Source of the DNA: Marinobacter sp. | GTDB lineage: Bacteria; Pseudomonadota; Gammaproteobacteria; Pseudomonadales; Oleiphilaceae | Reading direction: 5' to 3' | Length of the DNA stretch: 64,000 bases | Assembly (NCBI GenBank): GCA_002718255.1 | Contig: PBED01000028.1 | Location: 45,271-109,270, forward strand | Part shown: piece after piece, positions 47,794 through 55,078 of the stretch | Layout: every line of letters starts with the position of its first letter | Position numbering within the stretch: position 1 is the stretch's first letter | Translations under genes and position numbers: made by a program | Notes under the pieces: model-generated | What the model was told of the DNA's origin: nothing | The model's database searches: none | What the model saw: the letters and a program-made list of their open reading frames with translations, nothing else

Positions 47794-48423
47794 ATGAAGA
47801 CTTCCGATACTCACAAAGAAACTCGATACCGGAGCGTGGCCGCGACAGTCCTGTGGGCCCTTTGCCTTTTGCTCGCATCCCCACTGGCGATGTCCGAACA
47901 GGCGGACGACACCGTGACTGTCGGCATCGTGGGCGACAACAAACCCTACTCGTTCGACGATGGCCCCGGCGCCTCCGGTTTTTCTGTTGATGTGCTTCGG
48001 GAAGTCGCCCGCAAGGCCGATCTGACCTTCCAGTTTCGCGCCGGCAGCTGGCCGGAAATCTACGATGCATTTTTGCGGGGCGAACTAGATGTTATCGACG
48101 GCATCTCGTTCAGTGCCGAGCGTGCAGAGAACATCCTGTTCACTGAGCCCTACCACCTTCGCCAGACCTATCTGATGCACAACACCCAGAGGCCACTGAG
48201 AGACATCAACACCATTTCAGATCTCAAGGGACTTAGGGTCGGCATTGTGCGCGACGTGTACTACCGCGACGCCCTCCAGGCAGAAGGTGTCTCCCTCACG
48301 AGCTACGATTCCGTTCACAGCCTCATTCGGGCCCTTGCCTTCGGCTGGGTGGATGTCGTTGTCGGCCCCAGGCTTACGCTCCAATACTATGCCATTGCAA
48401 CATTATTGAGAAACAGGGTTTGA
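47794..48423 (+). pseudogene. Probably truncated extracellular solute-binding (SBP_bac_3) domain gene
   Basis: Signal peptide, PYSF, GFSVD, FTEPY; ends before the domain is complete, with its last ~9 codons in AT-rich sequence. Confidence 0.6.
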
Positions 48424-48499: not shown

Positions 48500-48600
48500 A
48501 GCTGACATTCTAAGTTGTCAGCCCGTAAAACAGCAAAAACGGAAAACACTAAAACAGAGGGTTTGGTCGATCGGCCGGCCCGTTGAAAGAGGGATACCGC

Positions 48601-48903
48601 ATGTCAAAGACAAGCGCGCGGCTGGATTTAAGAATTGATCCAGCGATCAAAGAATTGGCGGCGCGCGCTTCAGCTCTGACCGGGAGTCACAGTCTGTCGG
48701 AGTTTGTCATTCAAGCAATCCGAGAGAAGTCGGCTCGCGTGATCGAGGAGGCCGAAGTGTATCGGCTGAATAGTCAGTCGTTTGATGCTTTTGTAGCAGC
48801 CTGCGAGGCCGCTCCAGCACCGAACGAGGCTTTGCTGAGCGCGAAACGTCGCCGTAACAAAAGGATAGAAAACGGTGACCTTGAGGTTAGAACCATTAGA
48901 TAA
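48601..48903 (+). CDS. DUF1778 (TacA/AtaR-like) RHH antitoxin
   Basis: ARLDLRI...SLSEFV...FDAFVAAC...PNEAL; precedes and overlaps a GNAT gene. Confidence 0.9.
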   Translation: MSKTSARLDLRIDPAIKELAARASALTGSHSLSEFVIQAIREKSARVIEEAEVYRLNSQSFDAFVAACEAAPAPNEALLSAKRRRNKRIENGDLEVRTIR

Positions 48904-49423
48904 GAAGTCCCATGACAGGAAATCGTTTGATTGTGGATTGGAGCGCGTAAATGAGTTTCTTTGGCGCGAAGCACGCAATCAGATGGACAAGAAAATTAAT
49001 CGTACCTGGGTGTTGGTGGACGATAAGCCTGCCAATGTGTTGCCGGCTCCGGTTCTGGGTTATTTCACCTTGACCAGCGCAACTGTGGTGCGTGACGAGC
49101 TACCAGATAAGGAAACCCGTAGTCGGTATCCTGCCTATCCCATTCCAGTGATCAAGCTGGCGTGGCTAGGTGTTGATAGCAGGCTACACAGCTCAGAGCG
49201 CCGGCTCGGTGAAACGATTCTTCTTGAAGCTCTGGAAGAGGCGTACCGGATTGTTCAGTACAGTGGCATGGGAATAGCGGTTGTAGCGGATCCGCTTACC
49301 CAGGAAAGTGACCGCTTTTTTAAGCGATACGGCTTTCTGCCAATGGGAAGGCAATTCGGAGAGCTACAGTCTCTTTACTTACCTATGGGCACAATTGGTC
49401 AGCTGATTGATCCTCCATCTTGA
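48875..49423 (+). CDS. GNAT toxin (TacT/AtaT-like)
   Basis: HDRKSFDCG...VNEFL, GYFTL, PIPVIKLAWLGVD, FFKRYGF. Confidence 0.88.
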   Translation: MTLRLEPLDKKSHDRKSFDCGLERVNEFLWREARNQMDKKINRTWVLVDDKPANVLPAPVLGYFTLTSATVVRDELPDKETRSRYPAYPIPVIKLAWLGVDSRLHSSERRLGETILLEALEEAYRIVQYSGMGIAVVADPLTQESDRFFKRYGFLPMGRQFGELQSLYLPMGTIGQLIDPPS

Positions 49424-49439
49424 GGATGACACTGGCTTC

Positions 49440-49472
49440 AATAGCCGTATCGGTGCTCTGATACGGCTATTT
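49440..49472 (+). terminator. Hairpin after the TA operon
   Basis: AATAGCCGTATC-N8-GATACGGCTATT 12-bp stem with a weak T tract. Confidence 0.6.
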
Positions 49473-49503
49473 CCATTCTTCCAGACTTAAGAGTTACATT
49501 TGT

Positions 49504-49893
49504 ATGAAAACGATTGGCGAGCTTTGTGATACACACGGAAAACATGTTTCCCAAGGGGGGAAAGATCCATTCTATATCACAGTTGTTGAGCCTTTGCTGT
49601 CCGAAATAGAGGCGAGTTCAGGGCTTAAAGGTAGCTATGAAGTTGAGGGTAGATTTGATGTAAAGGCCCTGGCTAGATTTCGAAAGGGTGATAAAACATC
49701 CCAGCAGTTATTGATCGACTATACGGGAGAGGCGCCTGACGGTGGGCGTTCACTTATGATTTGGATTAATCCCAACAACCTCCCGGCGAAGCTCAAAGCC
49801 CAAGTGGTAAATCATCCTTCTGGCCCGGTGTTTCCGATTCCACGAAACTGGACGGCTGAGGAGTTCTCTCAACTGATCCGGTTCGATGATTAG
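49504..49893 (+). CDS. Hypothetical protein (129 aa)
   Basis: Open ORF in AT-rich DNA; overlaps the next gene by 8 nt. Confidence 0.65.
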   Translation: MKTIGELCDTHGKHVSQGGKDPFYITVVEPLLSEIEASSGLKGSYEVEGRFDVKALARFRKGDKTSQQLLIDYTGEAPDGGRSLMIWINPNNLPAKLKAQVVNHPSGPVFPIPRNWTAEEFSQLIRFDD

Positions 49894-50833
49894 GTTTTCG
49901 ACACATTTAGCAACTCGAGCCATTCATTGGGTGAGCGAATGCCTTAGATGGCTGATCTGGAATCTGCTAAGCGAACGGGCACAGTTAGAAATTGAGCTGC
50001 GGCTCGATGGCCATCCCCTTTTACACCCGTCTGAGGTGCCAACTCCGACCATTCTTGAAGATACCCGATGTGAGCTGGAAAGACTTAGAGATATTGAGTT
50101 TTCAGGCTATTTGCCGGGAATGAGCGAAAACGTTCGGGTTGTTATCGATCGAAGCCTGAAGGCATTGGTTACTGACCGGTTGTACACAGCATCTTTCCCG
50201 ATGGCCACTCTGGATGGATGTTCTGCGAGTAAAGCTCGGTATAGGCCAGATCGAGCGGGATGTGCCACCATGGCAGAATTGGGAAAGCTGATTAATGACT
50301 TGAAAGACCTACAGGGAAAGAGTGGGGAAGATATTGTTTCTGCATGTCTAGCCTGGCCTGAACTCCGACTTCATGAAGGGATCAGATTAACCACGGATAA
50401 TTGGCATCGACGTTTCTACTGGTCCAACGCAGGTGGTTCTCATCACATGGCTGTTCTTTGCTACGAGTTACAAAGGCAAGAAAAGCGATGGAACCCAGAG
50501 GTTAAGATCAAAGAATTCTCTCTCAATGTTAAGGCTTTAGAGCCAATCAATAGTGCGGCTTCTATTTTCGTTATCACACCCAAACCAGGCTCCTACGGGT
50601 TGGACAAGGTCTTTAGGCCTTTGAGTTATCGTCGAAACCTCTCAGAATTACACAGCCGGCTCGGTGTTGAGCTGTTATCGCTTGGAACCGGACCAGGAAT
50701 CTTGAGTCGTTACGATCTGGTTGTGGTTGATCACAGCAAAAAGTATGCATCACTTAGCTTGAAAAGGTTATCGGAGGCAGTAGCAGCTGGTTATGCAATA
50801 ACGTTCGAGGAGTTTCTTCTGAGCTGGACTTAA
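49886..50833 (+). CDS. Hypothetical protein with NAGGSHH motif (DUF6685-like, tentative)
   Basis: 315-aa ORF; WHRRFYWSNAGGSHH motif; family name recalled from memory. Confidence 0.65.
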   Translation: MIRFSTHLATRAIHWVSECLRWLIWNLLSERAQLEIELRLDGHPLLHPSEVPTPTILEDTRCELERLRDIEFSGYLPGMSENVRVVIDRSLKALVTDRLYTASFPMATLDGCSASKARYRPDRAGCATMAELGKLINDLKDLQGKSGEDIVSACLAWPELRLHEGIRLTTDNWHRRFYWSNAGGSHHMAVLCYELQRQEKRWNPEVKIKEFSLNVKALEPINSAASIFVITPKPGSYGLDKVFRPLSYRRNLSELHSRLGVELLSLGTGPGILSRYDLVVVDHSKKYASLSLKRLSEAVAAGYAITFEEFLLSWT

Positions 50834-50894
50834 CGTTGCTTAGCATCCCAGCTGACGTTCAGTTAACGTCGTTTCTGTGGTTTATTGTGGGTTC

Positions 50895-50923
50895 TTGTGT
50901 ATTAAGGCGAAAACTCTTATACT
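50895..50923 (+). promoter_or_regulatory. Sigma70-type promoter
   Basis: TTGTGT-17 bp-TATACT. Confidence 0.6.
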
Positions 50924-50929
50924 GTGTTC

Positions 50930-51078
50930 GTGGTTTGCGATAGTCGATGTCCCATTACTAGGGTGGGTAGCAACCATGGCACCAGATATTCGTATCTGGT
51001 TTCCACCATAGGTGGTTATAACCAAGACGCTCGACAGTGATACCTATACAGCCTGAACCCTGCTTACGCAGGGTTTTT
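50930..51078 (+). ncRNA. Candidate structured small RNA (~150 nt)
   Basis: Lies between the promoter and a + strand terminator; several hairpins inside a closing stem; no ORF longer than 11 aa contained in it; convergent with the YjaZ-like gene. Confidence 0.55.
51056..51078 (+). terminator. Intrinsic terminator
   Basis: AACCCTGC-TTAC-GCAGGGTT-TTT; T tract only on the + strand. Confidence 0.8.
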
Positions 51079-51091
51079 GCTTTTCTGGGAG

Positions 51092-51646
51092 TCAAAGTCC
51101 TTTGGACTTGGCGAACCTCGATAGGATCTCCCGGAATTTTTGGCCACCATGGCGGCGTATATCTGCGGGCCGATTGGTTCGCCAGTGAACGCTCCGCACG
51201 GATAACGACAAAGGCGGGGTCCGGCCTTTCCGGTGCTCCAGTCTCATGCAGAGATACCAGCCGTCATGGGCGGCCACCTGGCTTGGCTGTTCCTGCCGAT
51301 ACAAAATATCTTTGCTCCCGCCCTCCAAGCATCGTTTCAGCGCAAGCTCATCGATGACCGCCCGAAGGTTCTGGCAGAACGTCCAGCGATCCACGCAGAA
51401 AACCCGTTCCTCTACCGTTCCGTTCCGGTGCTGCTGCGTGTCGATAATGTGATGCTCAGCCTCGCCCTTCCGAGTCCGCGAATAGCAGTGATTCGAAAAC
51501 CTAACCAGGACCTCCACTGAAAACGGTTCTGCATCCTTGCGGGGCTTGATTTCATAGGTGGTGGTAAATGGTTTGAATACGCCGAGCTCATAGGTAGTGC
51601 CGGTATCCGGGTCTGTCCAGGCGGATTTGTCGTGGTTGAAAGGCAT
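51092..51646 (-). CDS. YjaZ/HtrC-like protein (possible RelE-like RNase fold)
   Basis: VRFSNHCYS, ERVFCVDRW, LSLSVRSVH and KF..I motifs resemble E. coli YjaZ (HtrC) as recalled; the fold is an inference. Confidence 0.65.
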   Translation of the reverse strand: MPFNHDKSAWTDPDTGTTYELGVFKPFTTTYEIKPRKDAEPFSVEVLVRFSNHCYSRTRKGEAEHHIIDTQQHRNGTVEERVFCVDRWTFCQNLRAVIDELALKRCLEGGSKDILYRQEQPSQVAAHDGWYLCMRLEHRKGRTPPLSLSVRSVHWRTNRPADIRRHGGQKFREILSRFAKSKGL

Positions 51647-51900
51647 CAGAACGTCATATATCGCATCAAGTGGTTGGTTTCAGTGGCCAGCAGCGAGTAT
51701 AAATCTCCGTTTTCTGGAGATCCGCGTGGCCGAGCCAGTCTCGCAGGACCGTCAAGGGCTGGCCGTGCAGGATAGCATTACAAGCAAAGGAATGGGGTAA
51801 TGTGCTCGTGACTCTCGATGACGGCGGCCAATTGGGTGAATGGAAGTAACCGATCCGTAGCCTTGAGACTCTTCCCCTCGCTGGCAGCTGCGCAATCAGC
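51646..51900 (-). pseudogene. Tyrosine recombinase/resolvase C-terminal remnant
   Basis: HSFACNAILHGQPLTVLRDWLGHADLQKTEIYT (box II with catalytic Tyr); frameshifted tail LLATETNHLMRYMTF*; HxxR and the N-terminus are lost. Confidence 0.78.
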
Positions 51901-52116
51901 ACTGGGAACAGCGCAGATAAGGATACGTTATTGCTCCTTCAGAGAGAAAGAGTGATCCTTCGAGGGGCACCGGGTGTTAAAAATCGGGTCTCATTGCAGA
52001 AATGTTGCAATACGATGGTTAAGTTCGGTAGTTCCTGATGGCGGGGTTTAACAGGTCACAGAAGGCGGCGCGAGAGAGGCTCCGCATCATCCAGCGTCAT
52101 GCACGAGGAGAGATTG

Positions 52117-52665
52117 GTGCCACTGTTTGAAACAGAGAGGTTGATTGTAAGGAAACTATCCCATCAAGATGTTCCGGTGCTCACCACAATACTCAGTGAT
52201 CCGGAAGTGATGAGGTTTTCCGTCCGTGGCGTTTGCGACGAAGCAGCTACCCTAAAGTTCGTTGATTGGTGCCTTGACTCTTATGCATCTCATGGAATTG
52301 GGCCATGGGCATTGTGCGTGAAGGAATCAGGGGATTTTATCGGTTTCTGTGGCATTGGGCCGGAGTACATTGACGGTGTTGAAGAGATCAACCTGGGTTA
52401 TCGCCTGGCGCACAGATTCTGGCAGCAAGGATATGCGACAGAAGCTGTTAAAGGAGTTCTCCAATATGCTTTTGGCCAAAAACACTACGAGTCGGTAGTT
52501 GTTATTATCGAACCTGAGCATACAGCCTCCGTTAGGGTCGCGGAGAAGGCGGGATTCGGAAACTATACACTGCGAAGATTCCATTCCCGACCTGTGCGGG
52601 TATATCGAATGACATACGATAACTGGGCATGGCATAACGAGACAATGCGTGCGCCAAGCGTGTGA
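52117..52665 (+). CDS. GNAT N-acetyltransferase (RimJ/RimL type)
   Basis: ETERLIVR, FIGFCG, WQQGYATEA, SVRVAEKAGF; GAGGAG RBS before GTG. Confidence 0.9.
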   Translation: MPLFETERLIVRKLSHQDVPVLTTILSDPEVMRFSVRGVCDEAATLKFVDWCLDSYASHGIGPWALCVKESGDFIGFCGIGPEYIDGVEEINLGYRLAHRFWQQGYATEAVKGVLQYAFGQKHYESVVVIIEPEHTASVRVAEKAGFGNYTLRRFHSRPVRVYRMTYDNWAWHNETMRAPSV

Positions 52666-52696
52666 CAGCCGTGTTTAAATCAGGAGGTAGCCATCG

Positions 52697-53110
52697 ATGG
52701 AATGGCAAAAGGATGATTACTTAATCACTGATGAGGTATCCAAGGTGCAACTGGATACTGTCCATCGCTTGCTAGCTGCAACCTACTGGGGTGGCCGTCG
52801 CCCTAAGGAAATCGTAGAGCGCATGGTTGCTGGCTCCATCTGCTTCAGTCTTTACCATGGTTCCACACAGATTGGTTTTGGCCGGGCAGTCACCGATAGT
52901 ACTACGTTTACCTGGGTCGCGGACATTGTGGTTGAGCCAGAGTTTCGGGGCGCCGGCTTGGGACAGTGGATCATGGAATGCTTGGTTGCGCACCCAGCCA
53001 TAAAAGGAACTCAAATGGTTCTGCAAACCCGTGATGCTCAAGGTCTGTATGAGCGGTTCGGATTTTCTGGAAATAGTGCCCTCATGAGCACGAAAGTCAC
53101 TGCCCTATAA
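52697..53110 (+). CDS. GNAT N-acetyltransferase
   Basis: IGFGRAVTD, FRGAGLG, TRDAQGLYERFGF. Confidence 0.9.
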   Translation: MEWQKDDYLITDEVSKVQLDTVHRLLAATYWGGRRPKEIVERMVAGSICFSLYHGSTQIGFGRAVTDSTTFTWVADIVVEPEFRGAGLGQWIMECLVAHPAIKGTQMVLQTRDAQGLYERFGFSGNSALMSTKVTAL

Positions 53111-53716: not shown

Positions 53717-55078
53717 ATGGCAATTGAGGGGTATGATCGGCAAGCATTTGGACGGAAGCTAGCAAAGCTAGTATTTCCGGCGCAGCCGATCCATAGCATT
53801 GAACACTTATTCGGAAGAGAAAACGAGCTTAGAAGAATTGAAGAAGCTCTTTATGCATCTGGACGCCATATTTTTATCTATGGAGATAGAGGGGTTGGTA
53901 AATCCTCCCTCGCTGCAACAGCTGCCAACCAGTATCAAAGTTCCGACTCAGAGTATATAGATGTATCCTGTTCTCCAGACGCAACGTTCTCAGATGTAAT
54001 AGCAAATATAGCTTATCAAGCCATCAGCGCGAGCAGGTTAAGCAAGAAAACGATAAAGGAAAAGGCTGGAGCTAATTTCAAATTTCTCAATCTTGAACGC
54101 GCCTCTGAAATTACTCTTCGTGACCTTCATGACGAAATAAAGTCACTTTTGGATGCGGTTGAAATGCTTCGTGAAGTATCAATTGTCCATTCAGAGACCC
54201 CCGTTGTCGTAATCGATGAGTTTGATCGTATGGAGTCGGAAAAAGAGCGAGCACTATTTTCCGATCTTTTGAAGCATCTTGGTGACAAGCGCATAGATAT
54301 AAAATTTATATTTACAGGAGTTGCATCGACTATAGATGCTTTATTGGGAGCTCATCAATCAGCTATACGCCAACTGGAAACAATAGAACTTCCAAAGTTG
54401 AGCTGGGATGCAAGGTGGGAAATCGTAACGGACGCCGCAGAAGAGTTTGGTATTGAGGTTGATAAAAACATTTTAGTAAGAATTGCTGCTGTTTCAGATG
54501 GCTATCCATATTACGTACATTTAATTACTGAAAAATTAATGTGGCATGTTTTCTGGCAGGAAATGTATATCACTAAAGTTACAAAAAATCATTATCAATC
54601 AGCTATAAATGATGCGATTCATAGTATATCTGCCGAACTAAAAAAACCTTATGAGAAGGCCATCTCGCAACGAACCGGTGACTACGAAGAGGTAATTTGG
54701 TCCACAGCCGATTCAGAGTGGCTGCATAGATACGTAAAAGATATGTACTCCTCATATGAGTACATTATGAAGCAATTTGATGACAAACATCCTCTAACAT
54801 CAGAAAAATATGGAGCTCGAATTAGAAATTTAAAAAATGAAAATTGTGGTGAAATTCTTGTCCCTGACCCCAAAAAGAAGGGTATGTACTCGTATAAAGA
54901 GAAGATGTTGAGAGGCTATGTTCGGATGCAAGCTGAAGCCCACGGTATTGAGCTGATTGGGGAGCAAACAGAAGCGAAAGCCACACATCATGTGACTGCG
55001 CGCGCTTCGAGTGGATACTATCAGAGCAAAGTTCCAAAAGGAGTTTACTTTGATCGGGACCGAAAGAATGGCAGGTAA
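53717..55078 (+). CDS. AAA+/P-loop ATPase (ORC1/Cdc6-like) with helical C-terminus
   Basis: LFGRENE, YGDRGVGKSS, VVVIDEFDR, SDGYPYYVH; very AT-rich. Confidence 0.85.
   Translation: MAIEGYDRQAFGRKLAKLVFPAQPIHSIEHLFGRENELRRIEEALYASGRHIFIYGDRGVGKSSLAATAANQYQSSDSEYIDVSCSPDATFSDVIANIAYQAISASRLSKKTIKEKAGANFKFLNLERASEITLRDLHDEIKSLLDAVEMLREVSIVHSETPVVVIDEFDRMESEKERALFSDLLKHLGDKRIDIKFIFTGVASTIDALLGAHQSAIRQLETIELPKLSWDARWEIVTDAAEEFGIEVDKNILVRIAAVSDGYPYYVHLITEKLMWHVFWQEMYITKVTKNHYQSAINDAIHSISAELKKPYEKAISQRTGDYEEVIWSTADSEWLHRYVKDMYSSYEYIMKQFDDKHPLTSEKYGARIRNLKNENCGEILVPDPKKKGMYSYKEKMLRGYVRMQAEAHGIELIGEQTEAKATHHVTARASSGYYQSKVPKGVYFDRDRKNGR

Follow-up and report, generated by a model that had tools for sequence, protein, structure and literature searches.

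The window considered here is a stretch of 64,000 nucleotides (nt) of Marinobacter sp. DNA (contig PBED01000028.1, forward strand), in which a gene of the YjaZ family converges on a small structured non-coding RNA (ncRNA). The gene, of 184 amino acids (aa), occupies 51092..51646 on the minus strand and encodes a protein predicted from structural comparison to be a RelE/BECR-like ribonuclease (RNase). The RNA, with a predicted length of ~150 nt, lies on the plus strand at 50930..51083 and is indicated by conservation, covariation, matches of covariance models (CMs) and a metatranscriptome contig. It is preceded by a predicted sigma-70 promoter (50895..50923, +) with a -35 box TTGTGT (50895-50900), a 17-nt spacer and a -10 box TATACT (50918-50923), and probably starts 7 nt past the latter. 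Its intrinsic terminator (51055..51083, +), a hairpin at 51055-51076 followed by a T run, may serve the convergent yjaZ mRNA as well. An earlier note on this DNA, made from the sequence alone, had described the promoter, two hairpins (50981-51000 and 51003-51015) and a terminator next to a convergent 184-aa open reading frame (ORF); all are found as claimed, the hairpins are paired in the RNA alignments, and promoter-like -35/-10 pairs recur at the equivalent position in homologous loci. The fold of the 156-nt stretch 50930-51085 beats 199/200 shuffles (z = -2.59). No Rfam family matches the RNA at gathering score (two chance matches at E about 5), and it stays below the gathering scores of sroH (RF00372) and sraL (RF01408). 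Coding of a small peptide was rejected, as the longest closed ORFs in the RNA cores span 1-38 aa and share no length.

The protein belongs to the YjaZ family, as its resemblance to E. coli YjaZ/HtrC had suggested. PF27200 (YjaZ family) is assigned to 10/10 homologues in precomputed Pfam annotation, a family atlas gives the window protein a YjaZ score of 0.97, and hhalign aligns it with K-12 YjaZ at a probability of 99.4, with about 18% identity. Its conserved residues are H53, C54, R81, F83, R87, L94 and S152; His53, Arg81, Arg87 and Ser152 are likely catalytic or RNA-binding residues. The YjaZ equivalog NF007263 of NCBIfam (cut-off 324) gives no match to the window protein at E 1, 44-87 bits for other homologues and 430 bits for K-12 YjaZ. 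Searches of Pfam (in a library without PF27200), NCBIfam, PHROG, PADLOC and PDB sequences returned nothing useful for the 184-aa protein, Foldseek gave no match at E 0.001 in PDB and BFVD, and blastn of the window region found no match in E. coli genomes. In a structure search, RelE-type chains are listed first, which places type II toxins of the RelE/ParE superfamily as the best structural neighbours; the next-nearest named atlas family, PBECR4 (0.77), is a lead only. The best structural match is thus of the RelE/BECR-like kind envisaged beforehand, but it is weak.

The RNA is predicted to fold around a pseudoknot, absent from the model of the earlier note and added by covariation. The pseudoknot helix (50930-50938 with 50970-50977, +) crosses the closing helix P1 (50943-47 with 51031-35, +). 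In a blind MAFFT alignment of 13 RNAs (A4), 92% of the pseudoknot cells are paired with 3/8 pairs compensatory, while P1 is 100% paired with 4/5 pairs compensatory; in an alignment of 20 sequences (A5), 5/8 pseudoknot pairs are compensatory. Hairpin P2 (50951-54 with 50964-67, +) lies inside P1. In the junction helix PJ (50978-80 with 51026, 51028 and 51030, +; 39/39 cells paired), a short linker 3' of the pseudoknot pairs with the strand preceding P1 around bulged purines, and the middle pair switches between C-G (6), G-C (4) and A-U (3). PJ closes hairpins P3 (50981-51000, +) and P4 (51003-51015, +) and contains an A-rich joiner (51017-51025, +). The closing stem proposed earlier is retained in its outer 5 bp (50943-47/51031-35); its remainder is replaced, as covariation pairs 51026-51030 with 50978-80.

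In A4, the model with pseudoknot and P1-P4 has 93.8% of cells paired and 11/27 pairs compensatory (0/500 shuffles), slid controls reach 30-42% of cells paired, and A5 shows compensatory change in 18/26 pairs; these covariation counts are inflated by kinship, according to a tool warning, and the structure was drawn from the tested sequences themselves. RNAalifold failed to recover the pseudoknot, P4 and PJ. A CM built from the 20 RNAs hits the RNA of three held-out loci at its precise position (E 2-4e-4), gives only weak matches in 15 further loci and does not match SroH, L011 or L039. A topology descriptor reaches p<=0.05 in 22/41 cores and in 7/60 control regions taken upstream of terminators in the own genome, a result that is partly circular because the descriptor was designed from these same sequences. 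It leaves 3 of the 41 loci without match, as well as L062, and gives p 0.34 for SroH alone. A first descriptor was discarded, since it picked terminators instead of the RNA core.

The linkage of RNA and gene is constant and occurs in two layouts. Fifty-eight loci were fetched and 41 distinct ones analysed, leaving out duplicates or near-duplicates (L009, L013, L014, L017, L020-L023, L025, L031, L041, L042 and L057), truncated contigs (L015, L018 and L028) and the viral L032, without match to the hidden Markov model. Scans of genomes, metagenomes and viruses contributed 2, 18 and 1 loci and undersample the YjaZ family because they were run with the close alignment A1. In 39/41 loci, window included, a promoter, a structured stretch and a terminator lie on the opposite strand just beyond the yjaZ stop. 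Visual inspection located the promoter in 27 loci, and a consensus score did so in most others (that of L052 was not located), and an automatic search found terminators in 41/41. In two Vibrio plasmids (L045 and L058) nothing lies downstream. Directly upstream on the same strand, a promoter is followed by an SroH-like RNA, and a terminator separates this RNA from yjaZ (L045:940-1130, +; L058:975-1140, +). A conserved promoter-RNA-terminator unit with covariation, on which the earlier note had made its proposal depend, accompanies the YjaZ homologues, convergent in 39 loci and tandem in 2. The annotated-length yjaZ frame of L058 has a C-terminus unlike that of its relatives.

The convergence at 39/41 loci, with a shared or abutting terminator, would suit a type I-like cis-antisense RNA that silences yjaZ mRNA by 3' overlap or transcriptional interference. 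This explanation is very improbable: L045 and L058 are tandem, overlap is confined to the terminator, and elsewhere (in 41 loci, the final 45 nt of yjaZ excepted) complementarity between RNA and yjaZ mRNA does not exceed 11 nt, so that the antisense complementarity typical of type I systems is not found. A covarying pseudoknot would moreover be superfluous for an antisense role.

RNA similarity tracks protein identity over the 41 loci (rho 0.46, 0/2000 permutations), and the nearest RNA belongs to one of the three nearest proteins in 33/41, a co-divergence also expected from neighbours merely inherited together. Flanking DNA shows no such correlation (rho -0.01), and conservation thus does not extend beyond the RNA. 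Among neighbouring ORFs, no family occurs in >5/41 loci. Within the genus, the RNA CM matches 2/150 genomes, both known yjaZ carriers (the protein was searched in 60). A search starting from the RNA found a convergent yjaZ at 2/3 loci opened, L060 being without it.

The same arrangement exists in E. coli K-12, where sroH is convergent to yjaZ (htrC) and starts 1 nt beyond its stop. The parallel drawn in the earlier note extends to structure: seven SroH-clade RNAs, blindly aligned, are 97.4% paired with 9/27 pairs compensatory in the same helix arrangement, including 3/4 pairs of the helix equivalent to PJ. Rfam RF00372 (sroH) models the terminator as its only structure. With about 18% protein identity and RNAs not alignable by CM (a CM from the SroH clade does not match the window clade, and CMs bridge no clades), the kinship between window RNA and SroH rests on predicted topology and on the homologous protein partner. 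In the accessible text of the sources, the heat-shock designation htrC of yjaZ is retracted (PMC11551758), the functions of yjaZ and sroH are given as unknown (PMC11551758, PMC5389530), and htrC is listed on ColE1 plasmids (PMC5864857). The open literature on yjaZ, htrC, SroH, SraL and RNA antitoxins contains in its accessible parts no yjaZ-sroH link and no such RNA class, and the accessible main text of PMC11109978 and 10.64898/2026.09.22.753630 has no mention of yjaZ, sroH or htrC.

A second kinship leads to SraL/RyjA. On small E. coli/Klebsiella plasmids, yjaZ-paired RNAs match Rfam sraL: L053:1693-1826 (-), convergent to yjaZ, scores 84.7 bits with RF01408 (gathering 39), and L059:1927-2067 (-) is likewise recognized. 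K-12 RyjA/SraL fits the topology descriptor (p 0.035). Differences are that soxR and ghxP flank chromosomal ryjA, with no yjaZ within 4.5 kb, that SraL is described as an RpoS-dependent mRNA regulator and that the window RNA has no RF01408 match. Chromosomal RyjA/SraL may be a domesticated orphan of the yjaZ-paired class. On a Shewanella plasmid, an SraL-like RNA core (L060:1190-1310, +) stands in a stretch without yjaZ. An Xre/MbcA antitoxin fragment and IS110 come next, and no terminator was seen downstream of this core, which is probably a decayed copy.

Such orphans, RyjA/SraL and L060, together with a reported mRNA target of SraL (PMC3753932) and an in vitro target, kbl, reported for SroH (PMC6172242), as far as the accessible text of these papers goes, lend some credit to an independent trans-acting small RNA (sRNA), base-pairing with mRNAs like SraL on tig and hitchhiking on a yjaZ islet without contact to the protein. 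Structure is kept and primary sequence is not, unlike in seed-pairing sRNAs; the pair persists in 41/41 protein-first and 2/3 RNA-first loci, even after rearrangement, in flanking DNA that is not conserved. This possibility is therefore improbable.

Hints of a short abundant RNA from this locus come from eight RNA runs, all compared as contigs, which cannot show strand, ends or level. In a marine metatranscriptome, a 112-nt contig with 90 nt identical to 50941-51030 has a depth of 1878, neighbouring contigs having 5-7. In a second run, a contig ending at 51051 has a depth of 427, with a separate yjaZ contig at depth 15. Contigs of three runs (X1, X5 and X6) cover the whole region and are uninformative on transcript units, and three others (X11-X13) hold no RNA-specific contig. 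The X14 contig end at 50941/50942 was not adopted as a cleavage site: it may be technical, the abutting sequence presumably being library adapter. One may ask whether there is a discrete RNA at all, or only hairpins of the operon at 49504-50833, forming its 3' end and terminator. A strict promoter scan is negative (0 found in 49000-53000; the -35 box has 3/6 matches), and one RNA-library contig links the upstream genes with the RNA region, stopping at 51051. This view is nevertheless scarcely credible, given the short high-depth contig, the promoters and structure conserved in unrelated contexts, and locus L021, where the protein is 97% identical and the DNA shared with the window is limited to 50870-51838. 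Because identity breaks off at 50870, the unit consists of promoter, RNA and yjaZ without the upstream operon.

YjaZ and its RNA are a real, conserved protein-RNA module, and the reading of the earlier note, a conserved functional pair, is supported; within it, we infer a toxin function for YjaZ and an antitoxin function for the RNA. The pair is likely a toxin-antitoxin system: rather probably, though not with assurance, YjaZ and the separately promoted pseudoknot RNA form a type III-like system in which the RNA inhibits the predicted RelE/BECR-type RNase. A strong promoter of its own would supply the RNA in large excess, and the folded core (pseudoknot, P1 and bulged PJ) would constitute the protein-binding surface. 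The RNA would be abundant but unstable, and, once bound, would keep the RNase inactive. A stop of host transcription, as in phage infection, or loss of the plasmid or island would let the RNA decay, and the freed RNase would cut cellular or phage RNA, leading to abortive infection and/or addiction.

Like the type III systems ToxIN, CptIN, TenpIN and AbiQ, YjaZ loci combine a protein RNase (predicted here) with a dedicated neighbouring ncRNA carrying a predicted pseudoknot and a terminator, and are distributed over plasmids and islands. The promoter-RNA-terminator-gene order of L045 and L058 (2/41 loci) is the one described for type III and AbiF systems (PMC12373285, accessible part). An upstream co-transcribed RNA with a terminator before the toxin is found only there, and not in the window and 38 other loci, which are convergent with a separate RNA promoter. 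Known type III toxins are homologous to ToxN and their antitoxins are tandem repeats (PMC12373285, PMC13682666, accessible parts), whereas the YjaZ-paired RNA is single-copy, larger and multi-helix, without internal direct repeats in 5/5 regions tested (one chance 16-nt pair lies outside the core of L001), and the protein is predicted to be RelE/BECR-like. No Pfam, NCBIfam, PADLOC or PDB-sequence match links YjaZ to ToxIN, CptIN or TenpIN families, although RelE-type chains topping the structure search do not alone exclude ToxN homology. RNA-neutralized toxins also include AvcID, whose toxin is a deaminase. The proposed pair resembles AbiF-RCd22, a non-ToxN toxin neutralized in cis and trans by an adjoining ncRNA (PMC12373285, accessible part). 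Both systems differ from YjaZ in protein family (Abi_2/AbiD/F, Cas13-related; deaminase) and RNA motifs, and Pfam and PADLOC searches gave no sequence match of the window protein to AbiF or AvcID families.

In retrons and DRT systems, an ncRNA acts as a cofactor-type partner. YjaZ could likewise need the RNA within a joint ribonucleoprotein, be it as cofactor, sensor or substrate-like activator, and the pair would serve anti-phage defence or stationary-phase translation tuning. The same linkage and covariation data fit, and a single-copy, multi-helix RNA is unlike repeat antitoxins. The viability of a K-12 sroH deletion, which is only sensitive to envelope stress (PMC5389530, PMC13572404, accessible parts), is the chief point against the toxin-antitoxin proposal. 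It is more in keeping with a cofactor than with an antitoxin that cells cannot do without, and could stem from low yjaZ expression or from a cofactor role of the RNA. Conversely, the predicted RelE-like fold matches type III/AbiF regulation, as does the promoter-RNA-terminator-gene order in two loci, the terminator setting RNA excess in type III/AbiF systems (PMC12373285, accessible part). A ribonucleoprotein is thus unlikely, while retaining an appreciable chance.

If YjaZ is the toxin of a type III-like system, two K-12 orphans, yjaZ and SroH, gain one directly testable hypothesis, and the pair would account for the long-unexplained SroH. The origin of SraL may come to light, type III systems would be enlarged by one toxin fold and one RNA architecture, and attention is drawn to a plasmid module now hidden under the annotations 'hypothetical' and 'heat shock protein C'. 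Rfam has no family-wide model for this RNA class. It is tempting to go further, tentatively and with slightly less than even confidence: YjaZ proteins would be the first RelE/BECR-fold RNases under an RNA, not a protein, antitoxin; the single-copy pseudoknot RNAs would form one hidden, fast-diverging class, to which SroH, still next to its toxin, and SraL/RyjA, an orphan turned mRNA regulator by domestication, would both belong; and hundreds of plasmids, common ones of Klebsiella among them, would carry the pair as an unrecognized addiction or anti-phage module.

The region around yjaZ is an island of low guanine-cytosine (GC) content whose genes include a TacA-type antitoxin, GNAT proteins, an ATPase and the remnant of an integrase. 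This remnant, the C-terminal part of a tyrosine integrase (51666..51902, -), matches PF00589 at E 4e-4, short of the curated cut-off, and adjoins yjaZ upstream. At the left edge, a substrate-binding-domain gene (47794-48423, +) ends abruptly, which suggests that the island was inserted into it. At 48583-49423 (+), a TacA1-type antitoxin (PF08681) precedes an overlapping 182-aa gene without Pfam match, presumably a GNAT toxin; this would be a second toxin-antitoxin pair of the island, and L036 has a comparable DUF1778-GNAT pair close to its yjaZ. The operon at 49504-50833 (+) encodes a 129-aa unknown protein and a 315-aa DUF6685 protein, without PHROG match, and is possible defence cargo. Beyond the stop codon of the DUF6685 gene, a short palindromic stretch (50834-50870), integron attC-like by eye, marks the divergence point of L021. 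A 453-aa STAND-like/AAA ATPase (53717-55078, +), in the part of the island lowest in GC (about 40%), is a candidate defence gene.

In three other loci, tRNA-like elements (RF00005, 44-46 bits) with an anticodon-loop insertion of ~40 nt lie <=300 nt from yjaZ homologues (L001:3392-3502, -; L003:2158-2267, -; L019:2284-2393, +); none stands beside yjaZ of the window. The yjaZ module occurs in 741 plasmid records. On small plasmids, traJ-II RNA and ColE1 RNAI are found near the yjaZ-RNA pairs (L050:1882-1986; L053:2323-2424). One yjaZ allele (L048, hits H27-H55; 29% to K-12) is carried with its RNA by several hundred Klebsiella/Enterobacter plasmid records, where yjaZ is annotated 'hypothetical' or 'heat shock protein C'.
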